NCBI GenBank assembly: GCA_045605805.1
Contig: JAZUQR010000027.1
Span: 99,908 to 163,907, forward strand
Direction: 5' to 3'
Length of the DNA: 64,000 nt
Source: Alphaproteobacteria bacterium
GTDB taxonomy: Bacteria; Pseudomonadota; Alphaproteobacteria; CAAHEQ01; UBA3637
In this document: one piece after another, positions 4,110 through 39,131 of the stretch
Layout: every line of letters starts with the position of its first letter
Position numbering within the stretch: position 1 is the stretch's first letter
Notes under the pieces: generated by a model
Told to the model about the DNA's origin: nothing
Seen by the model: the letters and a program-made list of their open reading frames with translations, nothing else
The model's database searches: none
Program-made: the position numbers and the translations under genes

Positions 4110-4259
4110 ATGAAATACTATCAAAAAAGACGCCACCTTATCAGCAAAATGATTGCGGGAATCATCCTATTCTTCATCCTCTTTTTTGCCTTGTGTGATT
4201 GTACCCCGAAAGCAACCACGACACAAACCACCATCACCTTTGAAAGAAATGGGTCATGA
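4110..4259 (+). CDS. small hypothetical membrane protein (~49 aa)
   Basis: An internal start MKYYQKRRHLISKMIAGIILFFILFFALC is preceded by an AAGGAG ribosome-binding site. The protein has one hydrophobic helix. Its stop overlaps the xerD start (ATGA), indicating translational coupling. Confidence 0.3.
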   Translation: MKYYQKRRHLISKMIAGIILFFILFFALCDCTPKATTTQTTITFERNGS

Positions 4260-5161
4260 TACCCAAAGAAATTGATGTTTTTTTACAAATGCAAACAGCC
4301 GAATGTGGGGCATCACCCAACACAATTTCAGCATACAAACATGATTTGGAATCGCTTCATGCATTTTTACAAACACACCATAATTCCTTAACAAGCGCCA
4401 CAAGTCAAGATCTTAAAGAATATATTGATGATTTAAGTCAACACCACTATTCGCCCAAAACACAAGCCCGTCGCCTGTCCAGTATGCGAGAGTTTTATAA
4501 GTTTCTGTTTTCCGAAAAAACCATCAAATCCAATCCCACCGACTATCTGCACAGCCCCAAAACACAAAAACCATTACCCAAATACCTCAGCGAAGAAGAT
4601 ATTTTTACACTAATTGCCAATGGGGATAAAATCAACCACCGTCTGTCCACATTATTGGAAGTTTTATACGCATCCGGTATGCGAGTCAGTGAATTGGTCG
4701 GTCTGCCCATGTCGGCCGTTTCACAAGAAAATAAGCGTCTGTATATTACGGGGAAAGGACAAAAAGAACGCATTGTTCCCTTAAACGAAAAAGCCTGTGA
4801 AGCATTGGAAAAATGGATCTTAAAACGAGAACTTCTGTTTCCCCGAGCACAAAAAAATAAATGGCTGTTTCCAGCGGCATCAAAATCGGGCCATTTAACA
4901 CGAGGTGTTTTCTTCAAAGAATTAAAAAAATTGGCTGTATTGTGTGATATTGATCCAACAAAAGTATCACCCCATGTATTTCGTCACTCATTTGCCTCCC
5001 ATTTAATTGCCCATGATGCCGATTTAAGGTCTGTGCAAAAACTTTTGGGCCACGCTGACATCGCCACCACAGAAATTTATACGCATATTTTACCAAATAG
5101 ATTAAAAAAGGTCATTGAAAAATCTCATCCTTTGTCGTATAATAACCAAAAGGATGAATAA
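4256..5161 (+). CDS. xerD: site-specific tyrosine recombinase XerD
   Basis: The C-terminal catalytic motifs HVFRHSFASHL and LLGHADIATTEIYTHI (the R-H-R-Y tyrosine-recombinase signature) are present. The N-terminal SAM-like domain and a 301-aa length match chromosomal XerC/D rather than a phage integrase. Confidence 0.8.
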   Translation: MIPKEIDVFLQMQTAECGASPNTISAYKHDLESLHAFLQTHHNSLTSATSQDLKEYIDDLSQHHYSPKTQARRLSSMREFYKFLFSEKTIKSNPTDYLHSPKTQKPLPKYLSEEDIFTLIANGDKINHRLSTLLEVLYASGMRVSELVGLPMSAVSQENKRLYITGKGQKERIVPLNEKACEALEKWILKRELLFPRAQKNKWLFPAASKSGHLTRGVFFKELKKLAVLCDIDPTKVSPHVFRHSFASHLIAHDADLRSVQKLLGHADIATTEIYTHILPNRLKKVIEKSHPLSYNNQKDE

Positions 5162-8100
5162 ATGAAGATTATAGACAAATACATTTTTCGGCAAACATTG
5201 GTTGGCTATCTGACAATTTTAATCAGTTTAACCGTCTTGATATGGTTGACACAATCCCTGCGCATGGTGGATATGATTGTCACCAAAGGGGTTTCTGTGG
5301 GTATTTTTTTGGAAATGACCCTTTTGGTGCTGCCAAACTTTTTACAAATTTTATCCCCCTTAGCCTTGTTTGGGGTAGCCTTGTTTGTGTTTATCCGCAT
5401 GCAATCGGACAAAGAACTGATTGTCTTAAAGGCTGTTGGCATGAACGCCAAACAATTGATAAAACCCTTGTTTATGTTAGGTGGTTTTTTGGTTTTCTTT
5501 GGCTATTTGCTCACCTTATGGGTGATTCCCGCCTCATATGCCCAACTGCGCCAAATGAAATGGAAAATACAAAACAATCTGTCTCACCTTTTGTTGCAAG
5601 AAGGGCAATTCAGCTCGTTCAAAAACGGCATGACATTATACATTCGGGAGCGAGAAGATGCCGGCAAAGTCAAAGGCATTCTGGCACATGAAATCAAAAA
5701 AGATAAAAAGTCTGTGCTTATTGCCGAAGAAGGCTCAATGATTCAAACCCCCGAAGGTATCAGTTTAACATTCAATAACGGCACCCGCCAAGAGTTTAAT
5801 ACAAAAACGAAAGAGTTTTCTATCTTAAAATTTGATAAGCATACCATGCTGTTTGAACATTCGGCAAACAAATCCAGCCGAAAAATAGACCCCCGTGAAA
5901 TGCCCTTAAAACAACTTATCCAAGCCCAACCAAATCAAGTAAAAGATGGCCCAACCTATCGCAAATATAAGGTAGAAGCCTTCAAACGCCTAACACAACC
6001 GCTGTACAATTTATTGTTTTTATGGTTGGCTGCCTTTGGTGTTTTAAGTGGTCATTATAACAGACGGGGTCAATCCCGCCAAATCAATGCTGTTGTCATT
6101 GCAGCTGTTTTAATTCAATCTTTATCATTGGCCTTTGAAAACATTGCCACACGCAACCTGTGGGGCATAAGTTTAATGGGATTCAACTTACTTATGCCAT
6201 TGGTAATTTTGTATTTTGTCTTATTCAAAGAACGCAAAATCGGTTGGATACATTTAATGTTGCTGCTCTCTTTAACAGGAATTGGGACAAACGCCTATGC
6301 CGGTCCGAAATTGGACTTACAAAATCATGATGCCAAGGCCCCTATTGATTTTGAAGCAGACAATATGGACTACAACATCAAAACAAACATTTTAACCGCA
6401 TCAGGGAATGTGGTTTTAACACAAAATCAAATGAATGTGCAAACACCAAAAATTATATACAACCAAGATACAGACGAGGTAAAAATCCCGCAAAAAACAA
6501 AAATTACCTTGCCAGACGGCACAAAATCAACCGTTCAAAATATGATGCTATACCCCAAAAAATCGGAAGCAACAGCCAACACCATCACCAGCATTTTAAC
6601 AGACGATTCCCGCATCACAGCCGAACAAATGATAAGCACCCAGAAGGGCGATATTATTTTGTTGAAAAACGCCACATACACGCCTTGCGATACATGTGAA
6701 GCCAAAGCCCCCCTGTGGCAAATTGAAGCCAAAGAAGTGAAACAAGATTTCACAGACCATACCCTATCTTATAAACATATGTTTTTGGATATAAAAGATA
6801 TCCCTGTGTTATACTTTCCTTACTTTCAAATGCCGGATGCAACCATCAAACGCAAATCAGGTTTTTTGAACCCCAGTATCCGCCATACAAGCGAAATGGG
6901 CCTGTCATTAGAAACACCTTTATTTGTGGATATAGCCGAAAATCAAAATCTGCTCATCACACCGGTGATTTCTGCCAAACACTTACCATTGGGGATTGTA
7001 AATTATAACGGCTTATTCACCAAAGGTATTCTGAATGTACAATTCAGCGGCACGCAAGATAAAGATAACGAAAACGAAGGTCACCTGAAAGCCAACTTTG
7101 AATATGATATGACACAAAACCTCCGTTTAACAGGGCAATACTTCCGCACGCTCAGCGACACCTATTTCCGCCGATATGATATTGAAGGCATCAATGATTC
7201 AGATTCTTTTTTGCGTTCTTATTTAACCGCTGAATACTTTGGCACGAGATTTTATACAAAAGCAAAAACATGGCATTTTCAAAGTCTGTTAAATGAAGTG
7301 AACAGCCGTTCGTTGCCTGTCATCATTCCAACTGTGGATATGCAGTACCACACCAAACCACTGTTTAATACCAATCTGTATGCCTTTACCAACATCAATA
7401 CCGCCTTATATAACACCCGCAACCATTTCAAATCTAACCGTCTGTCTTTAACGCAAGGATTTACCCTTCCCTATACCACTTCGTTTGGGTTGGTCACCGA
7501 AACAAAAGCAAGCCTGCGTTTTGATGGCTATGTGATAGACAGTGGCAAAGACAATCTGGTTTCCAAACATCCGGAAGACACCTATAACAAAGGACGCTTT
7601 ACCCCTATATTCAGCACAAAAATCAGTTATCCCTTGTTCACTACAACAAAGCAAACAACTCAAGTTTTGGAACCCATTATTATGATGGTGATGTCCCCCA
7701 ATACAAAGAACAGCCAAAACATTCCTAATTTAGACAGTACCGTCTTTAACTTTGACGATACCAACCTGTTTTCCGAAAACCGTTTTGCCGGCTATGACCG
7801 CATAGAAACAGGCACACGCATCAACTATGGTTTGCAATGGACAGCCTATCAAAATGATGCCAAAGACAGATCTTTATCCATCTTATTTGGCCAATCCTAT
7901 CGCTTGAACGAATCGGAAGAATTAAAAGATGTGATGGGATACAGCCACCACCTGTCCGACTATGTGGGAAACATTCAATTAAACTATCAACACCTGAATC
8001 TATACTATCGTTTCCGCTTAAATCGTGAAAACCTGTCCAAACGCAAAAATGACATTGGTTTTTCTGTGGGTGGCAACCCCTTGCGAGTTGGACTAAATTA

Positions 8101-8395
8101 TCTGTATCAAGGGGCATATACATTAGACAACAAACACTATGACGAAGAAAATGAAATTCGTTTTTGGGCGCAATCACAATTTCATAAAAACTGGCAAACA
8201 AGCGGTTATTACAGATACAACTTAAAAAAAGACGGAGGCCCTATTGAATATGGTGTTCAAATACGCTATGATAATGAATGTAGTGCCATCATATTTAATT
8301 TGGAAAAATCCTATACCAAAGACAGAAACTATAAAGGAAGCACCTCGTTTATGATAAAAGTACTTTTGAAAACCTTAGGAGGAATCGGTCAGTGA
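5162..8395 (+). CDS. lptD: LPS export permease LptF/LptG family (N-terminal ~365 aa) fused in frame to LPS-assembly protein LptD/OstA (C-terminal ~710 aa).
   Basis: The first ~365 aa form a YjgP/YjgQ-type permease (MKIIDKYIFRQTLVGYL..., six transmembrane segments). From around the ATG at 6257 (MLLLSLTGIGTNAYA, signal-peptide-like) the sequence is clearly LptD, with an OstA N-domain (NMDYNIKTNILTASGNVVLTQ) and the C-terminal beta-barrel. No stop codon separates the two parts, and the junction is in frame (1095 nt = 365 codons). Confidence 0.8.
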   Translation: MKIIDKYIFRQTLVGYLTILISLTVLIWLTQSLRMVDMIVTKGVSVGIFLEMTLLVLPNFLQILSPLALFGVALFVFIRMQSDKELIVLKAVGMNAKQLIKPLFMLGGFLVFFGYLLTLWVIPASYAQLRQMKWKIQNNLSHLLLQEGQFSSFKNGMTLYIREREDAGKVKGILAHEIKKDKKSVLIAEEGSMIQTPEGISLTFNNGTRQEFNTKTKEFSILKFDKHTMLFEHSANKSSRKIDPREMPLKQLIQAQPNQVKDGPTYRKYKVEAFKRLTQPLYNLLFLWLAAFGVLSGHYNRRGQSRQINAVVIAAVLIQSLSLAFENIATRNLWGISLMGFNLLMPLVILYFVLFKERKIGWIHLMLLLSLTGIGTNAYAGPKLDLQNHDAKAPIDFEADNMDYNIKTNILTASGNVVLTQNQMNVQTPKIIYNQDTDEVKIPQKTKITLPDGTKSTVQNMMLYPKKSEATANTITSILTDDSRITAEQMISTQKGDIILLKNATYTPCDTCEAKAPLWQIEAKEVKQDFTDHTLSYKHMFLDIKDIPVLYFPYFQMPDATIKRKSGFLNPSIRHTSEMGLSLETPLFVDIAENQNLLITPVISAKHLPLGIVNYNGLFTKGILNVQFSGTQDKDNENEGHLKANFEYDMTQNLRLTGQYFRTLSDTYFRRYDIEGINDSDSFLRSYLTAEYFGTRFYTKAKTWHFQSLLNEVNSRSLPVIIPTVDMQYHTKPLFNTNLYAFTNINTALYNTRNHFKSNRLSLTQGFTLPYTTSFGLVTETKASLRFDGYVIDSGKDNLVSKHPEDTYNKGRFTPIFSTKISYPLFTTTKQTTQVLEPIIMMVMSPNTKNSQNIPNLDSTVFNFDDTNLFSENRFAGYDRIETGTRINYGLQWTAYQNDAKDRSLSILFGQSYRLNESEELKDVMGYSHHLSDYVGNIQLNYQHLNLYYRFRLNRENLSKRKNDIGFSVGGNPLRVGLNYLYQGAYTLDNKHYDEENEIRFWAQSQFHKNWQTSGYYRYNLKKDGGPIEYGVQIRYDNECSAIIFNLEKSYTKDRNYKGSTSFMIKVLLKTLGGIGQ

Positions 8396-9282
8396 AATAC
8401 CTGCTTTTAATTTTAACCTTATTATGTACCTATACCACCCAAGCGATGGAGCTGAAAGCCACCGTCAACGATGAACCGATTTCTGATTTAGACATCACAG
8501 AATGGGCAAACCTGTTAAAGTTCCAACAACCACAAAAATATGAATCCTACACCAACGAAGACCTTCAAACAGAAGCCCTCAACAATCTGATAGAAACAAT
8601 TGTCAAAAAGCAAACGGCCCAAAATGAAGGGATAAAAGTAAGCAATAAAGAAATTCAAAATGCCAAAAATCATTTGGAACAACAAAATGGCCTGCCAATC
8701 GGAGAATTGAATAATTTATTACAAACCCAAGGCATCAATGCCGCCACACTTCAAAAGCAAATAGAAGCCGATTTATTGTGGTTGCAATACCTGCGTCATA
8801 AAACCGATGATTTATCCATTTCTGATTTGGCAGTGGATAAACGCTATCAAGCCATGAAGCAGGATTTGCAAGACCAAGGCATAACCGGCAACAGCATTAC
8901 ACTGTGGGAAATTGCCCAAGGAATGTTTGATGAAAATGTGGATGTCACAACAACTTTGGAATCAAAAGATTGTGAAGCCTTTTTGGAACATATTAAAATT
9001 GGCACACATCCAGAATCTGCCCAATCCGGTTGGACAGACCCAAATCAAATTGCACCAGAACTATACAACCTGTTAAAAGATGTGGCCGTAGGCGAAACAA
9101 TCGGCCCGTTGCGGGCTCCAAATGGCGTGTTGGTTTTAATGAAATGCAATGTACAAAACCAAAAAATTATGCCGGAAAAAGAACAATTAAAAATGCAAAT
9201 GGAAATGGAACAAATGGATGTGGTTTCTCGCCGTTTAATGGCCGAAGCTGTACGCCGTTCTGTCATAGAAAAAAAGGACTAA
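8392..9282 (+). CDS. surA: SurA-like periplasmic chaperone / peptidyl-prolyl isomerase
   Basis: The protein has a signal peptide (MKYLLLILTLLCTYTTQA), a SurA N-domain, and a parvulin-like C-terminal region. It lies immediately downstream of lptD, as in the alphaproteobacterial lptD-surA locus. Confidence 0.7.
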   Translation: MKYLLLILTLLCTYTTQAMELKATVNDEPISDLDITEWANLLKFQQPQKYESYTNEDLQTEALNNLIETIVKKQTAQNEGIKVSNKEIQNAKNHLEQQNGLPIGELNNLLQTQGINAATLQKQIEADLLWLQYLRHKTDDLSISDLAVDKRYQAMKQDLQDQGITGNSITLWEIAQGMFDENVDVTTTLESKDCEAFLEHIKIGTHPESAQSGWTDPNQIAPELYNLLKDVAVGETIGPLRAPNGVLVLMKCNVQNQKIMPEKEQLKMQMEMEQMDVVSRRLMAEAVRRSVIEKKD

Positions 9283-11254: not shown

Positions 11255-11731
11255 TTATTCTTTGGTAATAAATTCAGGTGGCACAATACCATCTTTCAGC
11301 ACAATCATATAATGTGGAATTTTGGTAAAAAAATAACCATTTCCAACTTTTTCCCATGGCAACCTTTCGTCCCACAAAATTTGTTGAGGGGTGATTTTTT
11401 CTAACTTTTTTCGCCCTGCACAACGGTAAATAGCCTTCACTAAACCCGCTTTTTGCAACGCTTCAAAATCAACGCTATACAAGCACCGATCTTTTTTAAA
11501 ATCGCCATAAAAACAACACGCTTTTGTCATTGGACTTGTCAGAACAGAAATGGCCCGACTGCGTCCAGGAAATCTCGTTTCTAAATATGCCAACACACCC
11601 TTTTTCGTTTTACTTTTTGCCCGACCAAAATAATGTGCCAGAGCTTCTCTAGGCGCCTTAATTGGTGCCCAAAGGCCCGTATTTAAAACATCTGCTTCCT
11701 TTGGCGCATAGTTATAAAGTTTACCCATCAC
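11255..11731 (-). CDS. hypothetical protein (158 aa), translationally coupled to lepA
   Basis: The ORF start overlaps the lepA stop (ATGA at 11728-11731). The protein has no signal peptide and is basic. I do not recognise a family. Confidence 0.4.
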
Positions 11732-13515
11732 TCTTCCCCGATTTTTAGGGCTTCAATAAAGGCATTTTGAGGGATTTCCACTTCACCGAATTGGCGCATA
11801 CGCTTTTTACCCTCTTTTTGTTTTTCAAGCAGTTTGCGCTTACGAGTAATATCGCCACCATAACATTTGGCTGTCACATCTTTGCGATAGGCCGAAATAT
11901 CCTCACGAGCAATAATCTTTCCGCCAATACTGGCCTGAATCGGAATCTTAAATTGATGGCGAGGAATCAAATCTTTCAATCTGGCACAAATTTGGCGTCC
12001 CCGTCTTTCGGCCTGCGAACGATGCACAAGGAAAGCCAAGGCATCTACTTGTTCTCCATGAACAAGGATATTCACCCGCACCAAATCACTGGCATGATAT
12101 TCATCAATATCATAATCAAAGCTGGCATACCCACGAGAGATAGATTTTAAGCGATCATAAAAATCAAAAACAATTTCATTCAAAGGCAAACGATAAACCG
12201 CCATTGCCCGATTCCCTACATAGGTTAAATCTAACTGTTCCCCTCGTCTTTCCGTACACAATTGCAAAATACTGCCCAAATACTCATCGGGGGTTAAAAT
12301 AGTGGCTTTCACCCAAGGCTCTTCAATTTTACGAATCGTTGTCACATCGGGCATATCAGCAGGATTGTGCATCACAAGCTCATCCCCATTTGTTTTATAC
12401 ACCTTATAGGCCACAGACGGAGCCGTTGTAATCAGATTCAAATCAAACTCACGGAATAAACGCTCTTGAATAATTTCCATATGCAAAAGCCCTAAAAAGC
12501 CACAACGAAATCCTTGTCCCAAAGCCATAGACTTATCCGGAGTAAATTGGAAACTGGCATCATTCAACTGTAATTTTTCAATAGCTTCTTTCAAAGCCTC
12601 ATAATCACTCATATCCACAGGAAACAACGAACAAAACACAACACTTTGGCTGGGCTTAAAGCCAGGCAAAACCTCGGCACAAGGTTTTTTCTCATGCGTA
12701 ATGGTATCCCCCACTTTTGTTTCACCAATAGACTTGATACCACAAATCACAAACCCAAGTTCCCCCGCAGATAAAGAATCACTATCTTGCATTTTTGGGG
12801 TAAAATAACCCAATCGTTCCACTGTGTAATTGGCCCCCGTGGACATAAATTGAATCATCTCATTTTTCTTCAAAACACCGTCCACAATACGCACCATCAC
12901 AACAATACCCAAATAAGGATCATACCAAGAATCCACTAACATGGCTTTCAAAGGATGATTGATATCCCCTTGCGGGGCCGGCAAGCGATTGACAATCACA
13001 TCCAAAACATCTTCAATGCCAATACCAGTTTTGGCCGAAATAAGCGGTGCATCGTGTGTATCCAAGCCAATCACATCTTCAATTTGCTGTTTCACCCGAT
13101 CCGCATCAGCCGCAGGCAAATCAATTTTGTTGATAACAGGCACAATTTCATGATTCGCATCCAAGGCTTTATACACATTGGCCAAGGTTTGGGCTTCCAC
13201 CCCTTGGGTAGCATCCACCACAAGCAACGACCCTTCACAAGCACTTAAACTTCGGCTGACTTCATAACCAAAGTCCACATGCCCTGGGGTATCAATCAAG
13301 TTCAAAATGTAATCCCCATACTTTAAACGAACCGTTTGGGCTTTAATGGTAATGCCCCTCTCTCGTTCAATATCCATATTGTCCAAAATCTGTGCCTTCA
13401 TTTCACGATCAGACACAGCCCCACATTTTTGAATCAACCTGTCCGCCAAAGTTGATTTACCATGATCAATGTGAGCCACAATAGAAAAATTACGAATATG
13501 AGATAAATCAGTCAT
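11728..13515 (-). CDS. lepA: elongation factor 4 (LepA)
   Basis: The sequence [21 protein letters not shown] and the full EF-G-like architecture with the LepA-specific C-terminus are present. The preferred start is the ATG at 13515 ([10 protein letters not shown]...), whereas the ORF track's 13551 start is a TTG. A TGTATAAT motif lies immediately upstream. Confidence 0.9.
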
Positions 13516-22950: not shown

Positions 22951-23175
22951 GTTGTTCTCCTTCTTTTGCATAAGAATATAGTCACTCTTTTGATAAAACG
23001 CAAGACACCCCCATTTTTTTAAGGACTCCTCTCTTGTAATTATTTGACAAAACAGCCATGCGCACAATTTGCGAATAATAAAAAGCCAAAAACATTTTGA
23101 AAAAACAACTTTTTCCTTGCAAAAAACACAAAAAAAAGCTATAATATATCCCACTGTTTTGCGAAAGGAATTAAA

Positions 23176-23688
23176 ATGGCTCAAAATTCAACAAAAACAT
23201 CCGATAAAATATTACAAGAAATTTTTCAACCTGCCTCTTATGTCAATGGTTGTTTTGTACAACAACCTGCTTTTGAAAAAGCAACACAAACACCTGATTC
23301 AACCATTAATACAATCAAATTTATGAAACAACACATTTCGGGCAAAGAGTTTGAAATTCACCGCAACAACTATCTTCGTGGTTCTTTATACGCAATTCAA
23401 AAACATCAATTTGATGCAAAACACACTGATTTTTTGGCTGACACAGTAAATTGGTTTATCCAAAAAAAACCAAGTCCTCACTCACAAACATACCATACAT
23501 TGTTAAAACTTTTAATAGAACAAATCAACCAAAAAGTTAAGATACCCCAAGAAAAACAACAACAATGGACAAACGCTTTAACACGCAAATCCCCGATTTG
23601 CATTCCAAATGATATTGGTTTAATTCCCGAAAATGCCGTTGAACCATCATTTACATTTGTAAAACATTTTTCAAAAAGATCAAGATAA
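23176..23688 (+). CDS. hypothetical protein (170 aa)
   Basis: The ORF lies between the divergent htpG promoter region and mipZ. It has an AAGGAA ribosome-binding site and no recognisable domain. Confidence 0.35.
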   Translation: MAQNSTKTSDKILQEIFQPASYVNGCFVQQPAFEKATQTPDSTINTIKFMKQHISGKEFEIHRNNYLRGSLYAIQKHQFDAKHTDFLADTVNWFIQKKPSPHSQTYHTLLKLLIEQINQKVKIPQEKQQQWTNALTRKSPICIPNDIGLIPENAVEPSFTFVKHFSKRSR

Positions 23689-29794: not shown

Positions 29795-30201
29795 CCAAAA
29801 TAAAACCAGAAGACTTGATAAAAAAAACACAGGATTTGTTAAAAAAAAGATATAATCCCAGCCATCATCATGCCGTTGTTGGGGCTTGTGTTTTATCAAA
29901 ATCCGGCAAAATATACACAGCCTTAAATACCGGCACCTATCAACCATCCATCGCCACCTGTGCAGAAATTATCGCCATTGGCATGGGTCATACAGCCGAA
30001 AAAGATTTTGAAATTGATACTATTGTGGCCATGCGTGACCAACCCGCTTATTGCATCAGCCCGTGCGGCAAATGCCGAGAATACATTGCCGACTATGGTC
30101 CAAAAGCAAAAGTCATTATGCCGGCTGACAATAAAAAAGGCTGGACATTAGAAAAAATTGCCAATTTGATACCGGATAAATATACAAAAAAGGAAAAATA
30201 A
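29791..30201 (+). CDS. cdd: cytidine deaminase-like protein (homotetrameric CDA family)
   Basis: The zinc ligands follow the CDA pattern, with CAE in TCAEIIAIG and PCxxC in SPCGKCRE. The length is 136 aa. Confidence 0.6.
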   Translation: MTKIKPEDLIKKTQDLLKKRYNPSHHHAVVGACVLSKSGKIYTALNTGTYQPSIATCAEIIAIGMGHTAEKDFEIDTIVAMRDQPAYCISPCGKCREYIADYGPKAKVIMPADNKKGWTLEKIANLIPDKYTKKEK

Positions 30202-30662
30202 TGCACATCATCATTTCAACCATCGGTAAATTAAAAAAGAATGCACCGGAATATGAATTGATAAACACATACCTAAAACGCACAAAATGGGATGTGGAAA
30301 TTAAAGAATATGAAGAAAAAAAAGCACTCAGTGGGCAAGCCTTAAAAAATGCCGAAGCCGAATTGCTGTTATCCGCTATTCCTCCAAAAGCCAAAGTAAT
30401 TGCCTTGGATGAACATGGACAAACACTGTCCTCACGAGAATTATCCAACACAATCAAAACATGGCAAACAAATGGCACAGATACAATTGCCTTTTTAATT
30501 GGTGGCTCAGACGGACATGGCGAAAAAGTAAAAAAACAGGCCGATTTAACACTGTCCTTCGGGCGTATGACCTTGCCTCACTTTTTAATGCGAGTTGTTC
30601 TGGCGGAACAAATCTATCGCACAAAAACAATTCTGGACGGTCACCCCTATCACCGAGATTAA
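30201..30662 (+). CDS. rlmH: 23S rRNA (pseudouridine1915-N3)-methyltransferase RlmH
   Basis: The 153-aa SPOUT-fold protein contains LIGGSDG and MTLPHFLMRVVLAEQIYR. Confidence 0.9.
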   Translation: MHIIISTIGKLKKNAPEYELINTYLKRTKWDVEIKEYEEKKALSGQALKNAEAELLLSAIPPKAKVIALDEHGQTLSSRELSNTIKTWQTNGTDTIAFLIGGSDGHGEKVKKQADLTLSFGRMTLPHFLMRVVLAEQIYRTKTILDGHPYHRD

Positions 30663-36402: not shown

Positions 36403-36822
36403 ATGATACAACGCACATTTTCAATTATAAAACCTAACGCCACCGCCCGCCATTTGGAAAATGAAATCAACGAAAAAATCCAACAGGCAGGCTTAAAAAT
36501 TATCGCATCCAAGCGCATTGAACACCCCACAAAAGAACAGTTTGAACAATTCTATGCCGAACACAAAGGCAAACCGTTTTATGAAGGCTTGTTGGATTTT
36601 ATGACCTCTGGCCCCATCGTGGTTCAGGTATTGGAAGCCGAAGAGGCCATCCAACGCTATCGCACTTTAATGGGAAATAAAGATCCGGCCGAAGCAGACG
36701 AAGGCACATTACGCAAACTGTATGCCGAAAGCAAAACAAAAAATTCGGTTCATGGGTCTGACTCACCCGAAAGTGCTGCCCGAGAAATTGCCTTGTGGTT
36801 CACCGAAGACGAATTAAAATAA
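36403..36822 (+). CDS. ndk: nucleoside diphosphate kinase
   Basis: The sequence TFSIIKPNA and the NSVHGSDS active-site histidine region match Ndk. An AAAGGAG ribosome-binding site is present. Upstream there is a candidate promoter, TTGACA (36348-36353), an 18-nt spacer, and TATGAT. Confidence 0.9.
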
Positions 36823-36842
36823 CCGTTCAGCGAGGGGCAACA

Positions 36843-39131
36843 GTGACACACAGAAGCAAATCAGCCCAATCCGGTCGCACCATGTTGGAAATCATCTCTG
36901 TCATGGCTATGATCGGCGTGCTGACAATCGGTTCTATTGCCTTTTATCGTTTTGTGATGAACTATCAACAAAGCAAAGCCCTTTATAACGATTTCAAAGT
37001 GCGTTCCGCCTTAAATATGGAAGGCAAAGGGCGTATTTTTTCCACCGATATGGAAAACAAATCAACCTATGACAAAGAAATGACGGTTGCACAAAATTTC
37101 CCCCAGTATGGTTTTTTCAAGATAACCGCCCAAGGTGTTGAACAGGCGATATGTAAAAGGCTGATAAAAGAAGAATGGCCCGAACACAGCCGGATTTATT
37201 TGGATGACAAACCATTTGGCTCGGCCATTACCGAATGTCCCCAAAAAGATGTCGCCTTTTCCGTTGTCTATCGTTCCACCCGCACCCGCCAAGAATTGCC
37301 CCCACTTTGTACACCCGATAGCACCTGTGAAGGCTGTACCTCATGTCAAAATGGCGAATGCCGTGCGGGTTGCTCATCGGGTAATGTGTGTTATGATAAC
37401 GCCTGCGTGGTTGGTTCATGCACATCCCAAGAAGACGGCACAGAATTGTGTTGCCCTGCAACACCGAAATACTGTCCGTTGAATGCACAAATAAGTGGCA
37501 ACCAAACCTCCTGTGCATGCGAATGCCCCTCTCACCGCACACAAAGTGGCGGGATATGCGGTGATTGTCATTTTGACAGCGAGTTTGAACCATTTATTGT
37601 ACCACAATTCACACAAAACACCAAAGCAGGCTATGGCACCTTACAAACCGATTACTATTCAATCAACAGCGCAGATGAAGATGCATGGCGGGCTTTTGAT
37701 GGGGATAAAACCAAACACTTTCTGTGGGTTGGCAACTATAGTTATGTTATATGGCATTTGCCACAACCAGTTCGGGTAAAATCCACAACAATTTGGCAAA
37801 ATTTAATTGATCCGGCAAAAGATAGATTTCCAAGAATAATCACCTTGTATGGTTCTAATGATAAAAACAATTGGACAACCTTGGGAACAATAACAAATCA
37901 AACAATTCCTCCTGAATATGTAAAACTTCAAACCGATGCCTCCCAACAGTGGACCAGCTTGAAATGGGAGTTTAATGACAATTTTGGCGGATGGTATGAA
38001 CAAGTCGGCGAAATTGAAATGGAAGCCGAAATACTGGCTTCAAGTTCAAACTATACTTTTGATACAAACACATTCCAATGCACAAAAGCACGCACCGAAA
38101 AAGAAGGGGAACCATGTCACCCATCTAACGCAGGCCGAACTGCTTGCAATCAATCCGAGGGCATATTGTATAAATGTACAGGTGGAACATTACAAGTACT
38201 CTACACATGCAATGCATCAAATCCCACAAATATTGAAAGTTTACAACAACCGAATATCTGCCCAGAAGTAGGAAATGAGTGTTTTATAAATGAGACACAA
38301 GGGATTTGTTTGGGCGAAGAAGGGAACTTACAATGCTGTGCCGGAGCAATCAATTTAGAAACAAACACTGTTTCTGAAACATGTTGCAACGAAGCTGTTT
38401 ATAACACAGCATTCTCAGGGGATTATTATGTCTACAGCTATCTTGAAGACAATATGGATGTCCCATCTGGAAACACAACTTTTTCAACATACATCAACGG
38501 CACCCCACTTGACTTTGGCTTATGTTGTTTTAATGCCATTGATTTGGTCACAGGCACAACCGATGAACGATGTGGTCAAGCAACAGCCGAAAAAATGAAT
38601 CAATGGACAAGCAGCTATCTGATATACGGTATGTCTAATGGTGAATTTTGCTATGGTCCAACCAATTTAAGCTACAAAGAACCAACCAGCACGCAACAAT
38701 GTTGTGATTTTGTCAAAGAAGATTTCCAATATATGCCTGATCCGCCATCAGTGACTTGGGTTGAAACAGAATGGGGATACAATTTCTGTTGTCAAGGCCC
38801 ATTTGATGCTTCATGTCCAGACTGTGGCATGACTGAAGACTGCTGCAAAAGCGCAGGCGGAACAATGGGAAGTGATTGGTGGAGCTGTTGTAAAGGCGCA
38901 GAAGACCTTGCTAATCCCGAATATGATTCATATACCTGTTGTTCGGATGTTGGGGGAGAAATGAGAACAGTAGAAGATTACTTTAACTACGGATACGAAT
39001 GGGATATGTATGATGTTTGTTTTAATCCAACAACCAATTGCCCCATTTCTCAATTTGCCTGTGAACGCTTCAGCGACAGGTATAATTGTCAATGGAACAA
39101 TGAAAATCAATCTTGCGAACCAATCTTATAA
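36843..39131 (+). CDS. large cysteine-rich secreted protein with a prepilin-type N-terminal domain and a discoidin/F5/8-type-C-like lectin domain (putative modular type IV pilin / pseudopilin-like adhesin)
   Basis: A GTG start at 36843 has a GAGGGG ribosome-binding site. The short basic leader VTHRSKSAQSG is followed by RTMLEIISVMAMIGVLTIGSIAF, the class III signal / prepilin methylation-domain pattern with Glu at +5. The rest has dozens of Cys in EGF-like spacing (CEGCTSCQNGECRAGC...CACECPSH...) and many NxS/T sequons. A central ~150-aa segment (DAWRAFDGDKTKHFLWVGNYSYVIWHLPQPVRV...RFPRIITLYGSNDKNNWTTLG) resembles F5/8 type C galactose-binding domains. Confidence 0.55.
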   Translation: MTHRSKSAQSGRTMLEIISVMAMIGVLTIGSIAFYRFVMNYQQSKALYNDFKVRSALNMEGKGRIFSTDMENKSTYDKEMTVAQNFPQYGFFKITAQGVEQAICKRLIKEEWPEHSRIYLDDKPFGSAITECPQKDVAFSVVYRSTRTRQELPPLCTPDSTCEGCTSCQNGECRAGCSSGNVCYDNACVVGSCTSQEDGTELCCPATPKYCPLNAQISGNQTSCACECPSHRTQSGGICGDCHFDSEFEPFIVPQFTQNTKAGYGTLQTDYYSINSADEDAWRAFDGDKTKHFLWVGNYSYVIWHLPQPVRVKSTTIWQNLIDPAKDRFPRIITLYGSNDKNNWTTLGTITNQTIPPEYVKLQTDASQQWTSLKWEFNDNFGGWYEQVGEIEMEAEILASSSNYTFDTNTFQCTKARTEKEGEPCHPSNAGRTACNQSEGILYKCTGGTLQVLYTCNASNPTNIESLQQPNICPEVGNECFINETQGICLGEEGNLQCCAGAINLETNTVSETCCNEAVYNTAFSGDYYVYSYLEDNMDVPSGNTTFSTYINGTPLDFGLCCFNAIDLVTGTTDERCGQATAEKMNQWTSSYLIYGMSNGEFCYGPTNLSYKEPTSTQQCCDFVKEDFQYMPDPPSVTWVETEWGYNFCCQGPFDASCPDCGMTEDCCKSAGGTMGSDWWSCCKGAEDLANPEYDSYTCCSDVGGEMRTVEDYFNYGYEWDMYDVCFNPTTNCPISQFACERFSDRYNCQWNNENQSCEPIL

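Follow-up and report, generated by a model that had tools for sequence, protein, structure and literature searches.

To our knowledge, the permease LptF and the barrel protein LptD are separate polypeptides from separate genes in all characterized systems. The closest known mechanistic precedent for a natural fusion of the two is the cytochrome b-c1 fusion protein fbcH, a precursor split into its two subunits at an internal sequence that resembles a signal peptide. A cytochrome b fused to cytochrome c1 is listed as a characteristic of Bradyrhizobiaceae (PMC4986455). In a viral polyprotein (core-E1 of hepatitis C virus, HCV), an internal signal peptide starts translocation of the downstream protein, the host signal peptidase cuts, and the peptide stays on the upstream product (PMC5402940). 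Here, we describe a locus at which LptF and LptD share one open reading frame (ORF). It lies in a stretch of 64,000 nucleotides (nt) from an Alphaproteobacteria bacterium (GenBank assembly GCA_045605805.1, contig JAZUQR010000027.1, positions 99,908 to 163,907), hereafter the window, and occupies window positions 5162..8395 on the forward (+) strand. The LptF-LptD gene architecture is real, conserved in a clade of uncultured Alphaproteobacteria from gut and rumen, and apparently undescribed; no natural LptF-LptD fusion was found in the literature searched, including under older gene-name combinations. We propose that the locus probably encodes a natural polyprotein that signal peptidase I would cut into LptF and LptD.

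One conserved reading frame for LptF and LptD

The interval 5162..8395 (+) is a single ATG-started ORF of 1077 amino acids (aa) plus stop, with zero internal stop codons in the ORF reading of the window. We annotate it as an LptF-signal peptide-LptD precursor, based on the ORF, Pfam and NCBIfam matches, and full-length homologues. Pfam places LptF_LptG at residues 6-351 of the 1077-aa protein (E 1.3e-65), LptD_N (PF03968) at 398-529, and LptD (PF04453) at 648-1011. An earlier annotation of the window, made from its letters and referred to here as the sequence-only reading, had described a permease with six transmembrane (TM) helices that runs stop-free into a whole LptD. The continuity of the frame is borne out by the ORF and its Pfam domains, and the completeness of both parts by Pfam, PDB profile matches, AlphaFold2, and hydropathy.

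The LptF module (aa 1-355; 5162..6226, +) is delimited by PF03739, TIGR04407, the AlphaFold2 model, and hydropathy. In its predicted layout, a periplasmic beta-jellyroll separates TM3 from TM4 in a set of six TM helices, and the C-terminus is cytoplasmic. The sequence-only reading had named this permease LptG. Its scores favor LptF: it reaches 233.2 bits with the NCBIfam model TIGR04407 (LptF; cut-off 230) and 87.4 bits with TIGR04408 (LptG), and the family profile scores ~98 bits against LptF chains of the PDB versus ~45 bits against LptG chains. By both sets of scores, the permease half classifies as LptF, and an LptG identity was ruled out.

The LptD part follows the module order of its family, an N-terminal OstA/LptA-like jellyroll (PF03968) and then a C-terminal barrel domain (PF04453). 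Its predicted mature N-terminus and periplasmic beta-jellyroll (aa 381-530; 6302..6751, +) are supported by PF03968, by PDB LptD/LptA profile matches from ~394, and by AlphaFold2 strands from 396. The outer-membrane beta-barrel (aa ~531-1077; 6752..8392, +) is supported by PF04453, PDB LptD chains at E 1e-39 to 1e-43, and an AlphaFold2 confidence (predicted local distance difference test, pLDDT) of mostly 80-96. Over both domains, PDB LptD chains match residues 396-1053 in the profile search, with E down to 2e-43. Three LptD cysteines are almost or fully invariant in an alignment of 120 sequences (Cys509 in 120/120, Cys512 in 119/120, and Cys1040 in 120/120). By their positions, they would be able to link the N-terminal domain with the C-terminus of the barrel, a pairing that is predicted only. 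One family trait differs: LptD is otherwise made as a precursor of its own that begins with a signal peptide, whereas the signal peptide here is internal, after 355 LptF residues.

A search that covered 5.8 billion proteins recovered at least 120 protein clusters of 1062-1091 aa (mostly ~1075-1090), which align over 98-100% of the query with identities of 47-98%. Each of these clusters holds both PF03739 and PF04453, and the source databases label them LptF or else LptD. A genome scan with one genome per GTDB species yielded 71 loci, nearly all from entries titled as uncultured Alphaproteobacteria metagenome-assembled genomes (MAGs), from goat, yak, sheep, roe deer, water buffalo, rabbit, and human gut. 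Both modules occupy one stop-free ORF at 62 of the 71 species-level loci, and distant fused loci at 36-42% identity (L043, L056, and L070) are still one ORF. The remainder are contig-end truncations, two loci broken within LptD (L007 and L057), one split at the junction (L050), and a three-gene outgroup (L069). The frame breaks of L007 (~12637) and L057 (~5399-5555) lie inside the LptD part, away from the junction, and are probably assembly errors or pseudogenes. Three loci (L023, L043, and L065) come from bins titled 'uncultured Lactobacillales bacterium' or 'Holdemanella biformis'; LptD is not expected in monoderm Firmicutes, so these bins are probably mislabeled or contaminated.

An exhaustive HMMER pass over 1.84 billion representatives at 50% identity returned 21,945 matches. 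Full-length fusions among them were only P0036, P0121, P0122, P0126, and the divergent P0133, plus fragments, and scores below the fusions drop to ordinary LptDs of 700-760 aa. Based on this pass and the locus counts, the LptF-LptD architecture is phylogenetically narrow and firmly fixed inside its clade. Within the fusions, 104 columns are invariant in the 120-sequence alignment (A2) and 167 in a 29-sequence alignment (A1).

The same data bear on whether the frame is an artifact or a pseudogene, in which the lptF stop codon was lost, or the frame shifted, through an error in sequencing or assembly. MAG assemblies do contain frame errors, as L007 and L057 illustrate, but the same fusion recurs in assemblies made independently by many projects and from many hosts, across the 62 loci and the at least 120 clusters, with both modules strongly conserved. 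An error is therefore an extremely unlikely explanation, and it was rejected on the conservation of the fusion.

The junction and its predicted processing

Junction statistics were drawn from 120 aligned homologues. Conservation along the protein is lowest in the linker, where the mean top-residue frequency is 0.33 versus 0.66 in the TM region before it; measured from the conserved Pro346 to Ala380, the linker occurs in 12 lengths of 32-44 aa and is in frame every time. The column of Ala380, at the end of this linker, has a conservation of 0.96 versus the linker average of 0.33. Position 380 (-1) is Ala in 115/120 and Ser in 5/120, and position 378 (-3) is small in 120/120 (Ala in 72, Val in 20, Ser in 18, Thr in nine, and Gly in one). 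Position -2 is variable and often bulky, and Pro stands at +1 in a single homologue of the 120. The n-region, in a basic loop, has a mean net charge of +4.5 and is followed by ~16 uncharged residues that include the c-region. The junction therefore has the tripartite pattern of Sec/signal peptidase I substrates (basic n, hydrophobic h of ~7-15 aa, and c region, in N-in/C-out orientation) and obeys the -3/-1 rule of signal peptidase I, with small uncharged residues at both positions and nearly no Pro at +1.

A signal-peptide-like segment at the junction had been noted in the sequence-only reading. The segment is present, but its better bounds are aa 356-380 (6227..6301, +), which include the basic loop upstream of the Met chosen in that reading; it consists of a basic n-region KERK, an uncharged h-region IGWIHLMLLLSLTGIGT, and a c-region N-A-Y-A. 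The signal peptidase I cut is predicted between Ala380 and Gly381 (nt 6301/6302). With a slash for the corresponding site, the distant fusions P0121, P0122, P0126, P0133, and P0157 read ARA/N, SNA/S, AGA/K, LFA/Q, and AKA/A, respectively, and the junctions of L056, L070, and L048 repeat the small-x-small pattern.

The fusion was modeled with AlphaFold2 from the 120-sequence alignment (mean pLDDT 80.7; predicted template modeling score, pTM, 0.55). The model contains two confident modules and a linker (361-390) with pLDDT <50, in which a short helix appears only at 362-372. The LptF module is built of helices at 2-42, 46-82, and 96-140, strands at 150-232, and helices at 263-295, 305-331, and 335-354. 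Hydropathy peaks agree with this six-TM layout, and the basic loops of the LptF part fit the positive-inside rule, with the KERK loop just after TM6. Because three TM helices come after the periplasmic jellyroll, the LptF C-terminus is predicted to be cytoplasmic, such that the next hydrophobic segment would run in-to-out, as an N-terminal signal peptide does. The AxA site would then face the periplasm, the side on which signal peptidase I acts. With this layout, the fusion is topologically coherent. The earlier statement that a fusion needs internal cleavage or is topologically odd thus stands in its first half, since cleavage is supported by occurrence in more than 60 species, a conserved AxA, and the lack of a conserved internal start; it does not stand in its second half, given a cytoplasmic LptF C-terminus.

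We propose the following route, which we consider probable as a whole. Translated as one chain, LptF would insert in the inner membrane with its six TM helices and cytoplasmic C-terminus. Residues 356-380 would then behave as a Sec signal peptide at an N-terminus does, crossing the membrane in-to-out and starting the export of LptD. Signal peptidase I would cut after Ala380 and free a normal mature LptD into the periplasm, from where it would assemble in the outer membrane via chaperones and BAM; the next gene encodes a SurA-like chaperone. LptF would keep the old signal peptide as a C-terminal seventh helix, unless it is trimmed later.

The spacing beyond the cleavage site bears on the opposite possibility, that the fusion stays uncleaved as a covalent inner-to-outer membrane tether, with the hydrophobic segment as a permanent seventh TM anchor and LptD held beside LptF. 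The ORF is indeed conserved as a single unit, and LptF and LptD are the two ends of one trans-envelope bridge. A conserved motif of the LptD jellyroll (Phe397), however, lies 14-18 residues past the cleavage site in the 120 homologues, and PDB LptD chains start aligning at ~394, which corresponds to residue ~47 of the Shigella/E. coli precursor. The fusion therefore carries no extra spacer: the distance from the hydrophobic segment to the jellyroll is no more than in an ordinary mature LptD and, estimated from general envelope dimensions, a connection of 14-18 residues is too short to span the periplasm. The tether would also leave the near-invariant small-x-small motif unexplained, its uncharged stretch of ~16 aa (including the c-region) has the length of a signal peptide rather than of an anchor, and L050, inside the clade, does well with split genes. 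We regard an uncleaved tether as very unlikely.

Several points weigh against the proposed cleavage of a single chain. The distant loci L043 and L063 have an atypical G-x-C c-region that makes cleavage less obvious; lipoprotein processing by signal peptidase II was considered for these two and rejected, as the residues before Cys form no lipobox. The cleavage site itself is predicted from two lines, the -3/-1 rule and conservation. In-frame start-like codons occur in 56/63 junctions, and internal initiation independent of a Shine-Dalgarno (SD) motif is possible in individual species. The genes lptG, lptA, lptC, lptB, lptE, and lepB were not found in the window, as annotated to ~40 kb. Finally, the fusion may bring no advantage and be neutral under selection.

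The start-like codons also speak for a different account, in which LptF and LptD are made as separate proteins because initiation inside the junction, at ATG 6257 or another ATG, GTG, or TTG, yields pre-LptD and the read-through chain is a tolerated by-product or is degraded. The ATG in question (Met366; 6257..6259, +) was the LptD start suggested in the sequence-only reading. It has weak anti-SD pairing (-3.6 kcal/mol; in the window, the lptF and surA starts reach -5.4 and -10.2, respectively), and split relatives show that an independently started LptD with a homologous signal peptide is viable. Met366 is nonetheless unconserved, its column holding Met in 6/120 homologues, and it lacks a convincing SD motif. 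An SD-type motif (AGGA, GGAG, or GAGG) lies upstream of the lptF start at 51/63 loci; one accompanies a junction start-like codon at 5/63 loci versus a background of 4.9%. We also calculated anti-SD duplex energies for every in-frame ATG, GTG, or TTG that leaves at least 8 signal-peptide residues. The 168 junction start-like codons average -1.76 kcal/mol versus -2.00 for other internal start-like codons (p=0.26), whereas true lptF starts average -5.29 kcal/mol (p~1e-23); in the closest split relatives, lptD starts are likewise strong.

Seven of the 63 loci contain no candidate junction start, and a start at Met366 would leave the signal peptide without its basic n-region. Because there is no stop codon, ribosomes translating lptF must go on into lptD, and the fusion chain would be made regardless; the conserved AxA is required under either account. 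A conserved internal LptD start was ruled out by the Met366 column, the SD motif counts, and the anti-SD energies. The alternative offered in the sequence-only reading, that a mutation or sequencing error removed the stop of an lptG and that LptD is translated from ATG 6257, fails as a general explanation on the same grounds and on the conservation of the fusion. Production of LptD by internal initiation is, in our estimate, quite unlikely.

Processing of a single chain by signal peptidase I, our preferred reading, could have consequences beyond export: LptF and LptD would be synthesized at a strict 1:1 ratio, an outer-membrane protein would be targeted during its translation, and LptD would be set free beside its inner-membrane partner. 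A more ambitious version treats the fusion as an adaptive assembly device, with co-translational instead of post-translational targeting via LptF TM1, strict 1:1 output because LptD is made only as the tail of LptF, LptD release at the LptB2FG complex to which it will form the bridge, and a functional seventh LptF helix that may, for example, pack where LptC-like accessory helices bind. We offer this version tentatively and consider it rather doubtful.

Origin of the fusion and its genomic setting

The nearest stand-alone LptDs (P0130, P0127, P0132, P0141, and P0131) have an LptF-type gene directly upstream and surA downstream, and xerD is also upstream in P0130, P0127, and P0141, as in the window. 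The lptF and lptD genes of unfused relatives overlap by 4, 8, 1, and 4 nt; in P0131, a spacer of 40 nt separates them. In the closest unfused lineages, AAGGAG-type SD motifs precede lptD with energies of -7.9 to -8.2. One nucleotide inserted before the ATG of GCATGAAG in L072 would, from the reading frames, give the fused arrangement.

A neighbor-joining tree of the LptD part (691 columns, 100 bootstraps), which is crude, recovers the core fused clade as monophyletic in 96/100 replicates, with P0127, P0130, and P0132 outside it in 100/100 and L050 inside it in 100/100. In L050 (10990-11150), lptF ends in ...KKEQGPK, its TGA stop overlaps the lptD start (ATGA), and AAGGAG lies upstream; LptD begins MKGKYFSALLLSFMTFSAQA/FVEV, with the slash as above. 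The junction peptide appears to serve this species as an ordinary N-terminal signal peptide. Since L050 is nested in the fused clade, its split represents a secondary fission, which is consistent with the loss of a single A from an A-run. The fusions P0126 and P0133 lie outside the core clade, and their positions suggest further independent merges or splits. In P0133 (L077, 9299-12826, 1175 aa), the stretch between the predicted signal-peptide site and the LptD-profile-aligned part is longer.

Our best reading is that the fusion arose as a frame merge of two translationally coupled, overlapping genes, for which a single-nucleotide indel would be enough. Split outgroups and the L050 reversion indicate that fused and split states interconvert, as expected if both give identical mature proteins. 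The sequence-only reading had counted relatives with two genes overlapping by 1-4 nt as evidence against a fusion. Such overlaps do occur, in the outgroups and L050, but they leave the fusion intact and instead reveal its origin and interchangeability.

A chimeric LptF/LptG origin through deletion of lptG from an L069-like gene order was rejected; near outgroups are already lptF-lptD, and the whole permease matches LptF. In L069 (9974-14500; chromosome OZ245840, 5.3 Mb), lptF, lptG, and lptD are consecutive, with 3-nt gaps between the stop-to-stop ORFs. This order differs from the lptF-lptD of the gut lineage, and the position of lptG therefore differs between groups. Hidden Markov model scans of ORFs of at least 80 aa in the window and the fetched loci found no further LptF/G-like or jellyroll protein except the lptG of L069, and within ±10 kb in ~70 related loci neither lptG nor lptB, whose products form the LptB2FG transporter with LptF, was found, save that same lptG. 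Because unfused relatives likewise have no adjacent lptG, its absence at the locus is not tied to the fusion.

The fused gene adjoins its neighbors on both sides. Upstream, a xerD-type tyrosine recombinase (4256..5161, +) ends in a TAA stop that abuts the lptF ATG, with an AAGGA motif upstream of that ATG and the same synteny in unfused relatives. Downstream, a gene for a surA-like periplasmic chaperone (8392..9282, +) has a GTG start that overlaps the lptD stop (GTGA, 8392-8395) and a strong AGGAGG at 8377-8382, with an anti-SD energy of -10.2 kcal/mol; from this arrangement, surA is predicted to be translationally coupled to lptD. The AGGAGG sits within the codons for the end of LptD (...KTLGG...), which is nearly invariant, so a double constraint, as protein and as ribosome-binding site, may act on these final residues. 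The SurA homologue of the window is 296 aa long and, by Pfam, has SurA N-terminal domains only, without a parvulin/rotamase domain. The SurA after the divergent fused P0133 is also without a rotamase domain, and lptD-adjacent SurA proteins in the unfused L072, L075, L076, L078, and L079 are 314-448 aa with rotamase domains present.

The window is otherwise ordinary chromosome near dnaA. Its genes run rsmI, corC, aroK, xerD, lptF-lptD, surA, folD, methyltransferase, lepA, recR, ymdB, yebC, ruvC, and dnaA, followed by hsp20, thyX, htpG, mipZ, pgm, mlaE, mlaF, radA, cvpA, sigma factor, map, uvrA, rdgB, and mraW. Between rdgB (Ham1) and mraW, where the dcw cluster begins, a 789-aa ORF (36762-39128, +) matches no Pfam family at E<1e-4. 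Three smaller ORFs also have no Pfam match (23101-23685, +; 30119-30577, -; and 11258-11752, -, downstream of lepA).

Significance and comparison with known systems

An inner-membrane ATP-binding cassette (ABC) permease and an outer-membrane beta-barrel as one conserved polypeptide are undescribed in the literature searched. If cleaved as predicted, the fusion would rank among the rare natural polyproteins of bacteria whose processing takes place at an internal signal peptide, and would be the first such case with one product bound for the outer membrane. It would then offer a natural setting in which to ask if co-translational targeting is compatible with an outer-membrane protein, and if it makes a difference that the ends of the Lpt bridge are coupled in stoichiometry or in space. 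Were the adaptive version true, it would be a natural case in which both ends of a trans-envelope machine are born as one chain. The locus also illustrates the ease with which ATGA-coupled genes are merged or split by single-nucleotide indels. On a practical level, pipelines label the fusions LptF or else LptD, and Lpt inventories of gut Alphaproteobacteria therefore miscount one of the two.

Relative to the canonical Lpt machinery (E. coli LptB2FG-C-A-DE; PDB 6MHU, 5IV9, and 4Q35, among others), both modules of the fusion are orthologous by family models and structure-profile matches. The periplasmic jellyroll of LptF is kept, as are the jellyroll, barrel, and Cys residues of LptD. Unlike in the canonical system, the two proteins share one ORF, with the signal peptide of LptD lying inside it.

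The unfused sister gut Alphaproteobacteria (L072, L075, L076, and L078) and the reverted L050 share the xerD-lptF-lptD-surA synteny, the LptF type, and a homologous LptD signal peptide. They differ in that lptF has a stop codon, which overlaps the lptD start or directly adjoins it (ATGA, TAATG, or an 8-nt overlap), and, in the closest of them, an SD motif precedes lptD; the fused genes have neither.

Beyond the Lpt family, HCV-type polyproteins provide an analogy of mechanism only, as they involve viral proteins and the machinery of the eukaryotic endoplasmic reticulum. The likeness to fbcH is closer, because it, too, joins a polytopic protein of the inner membrane to a partner from the same complex that faces the periplasm. 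Both fbcH products, however, belong to unrelated families and stay in an inner-membrane complex, whereas the LptD released from the fusion described here must reach, and insert into, the outer membrane.

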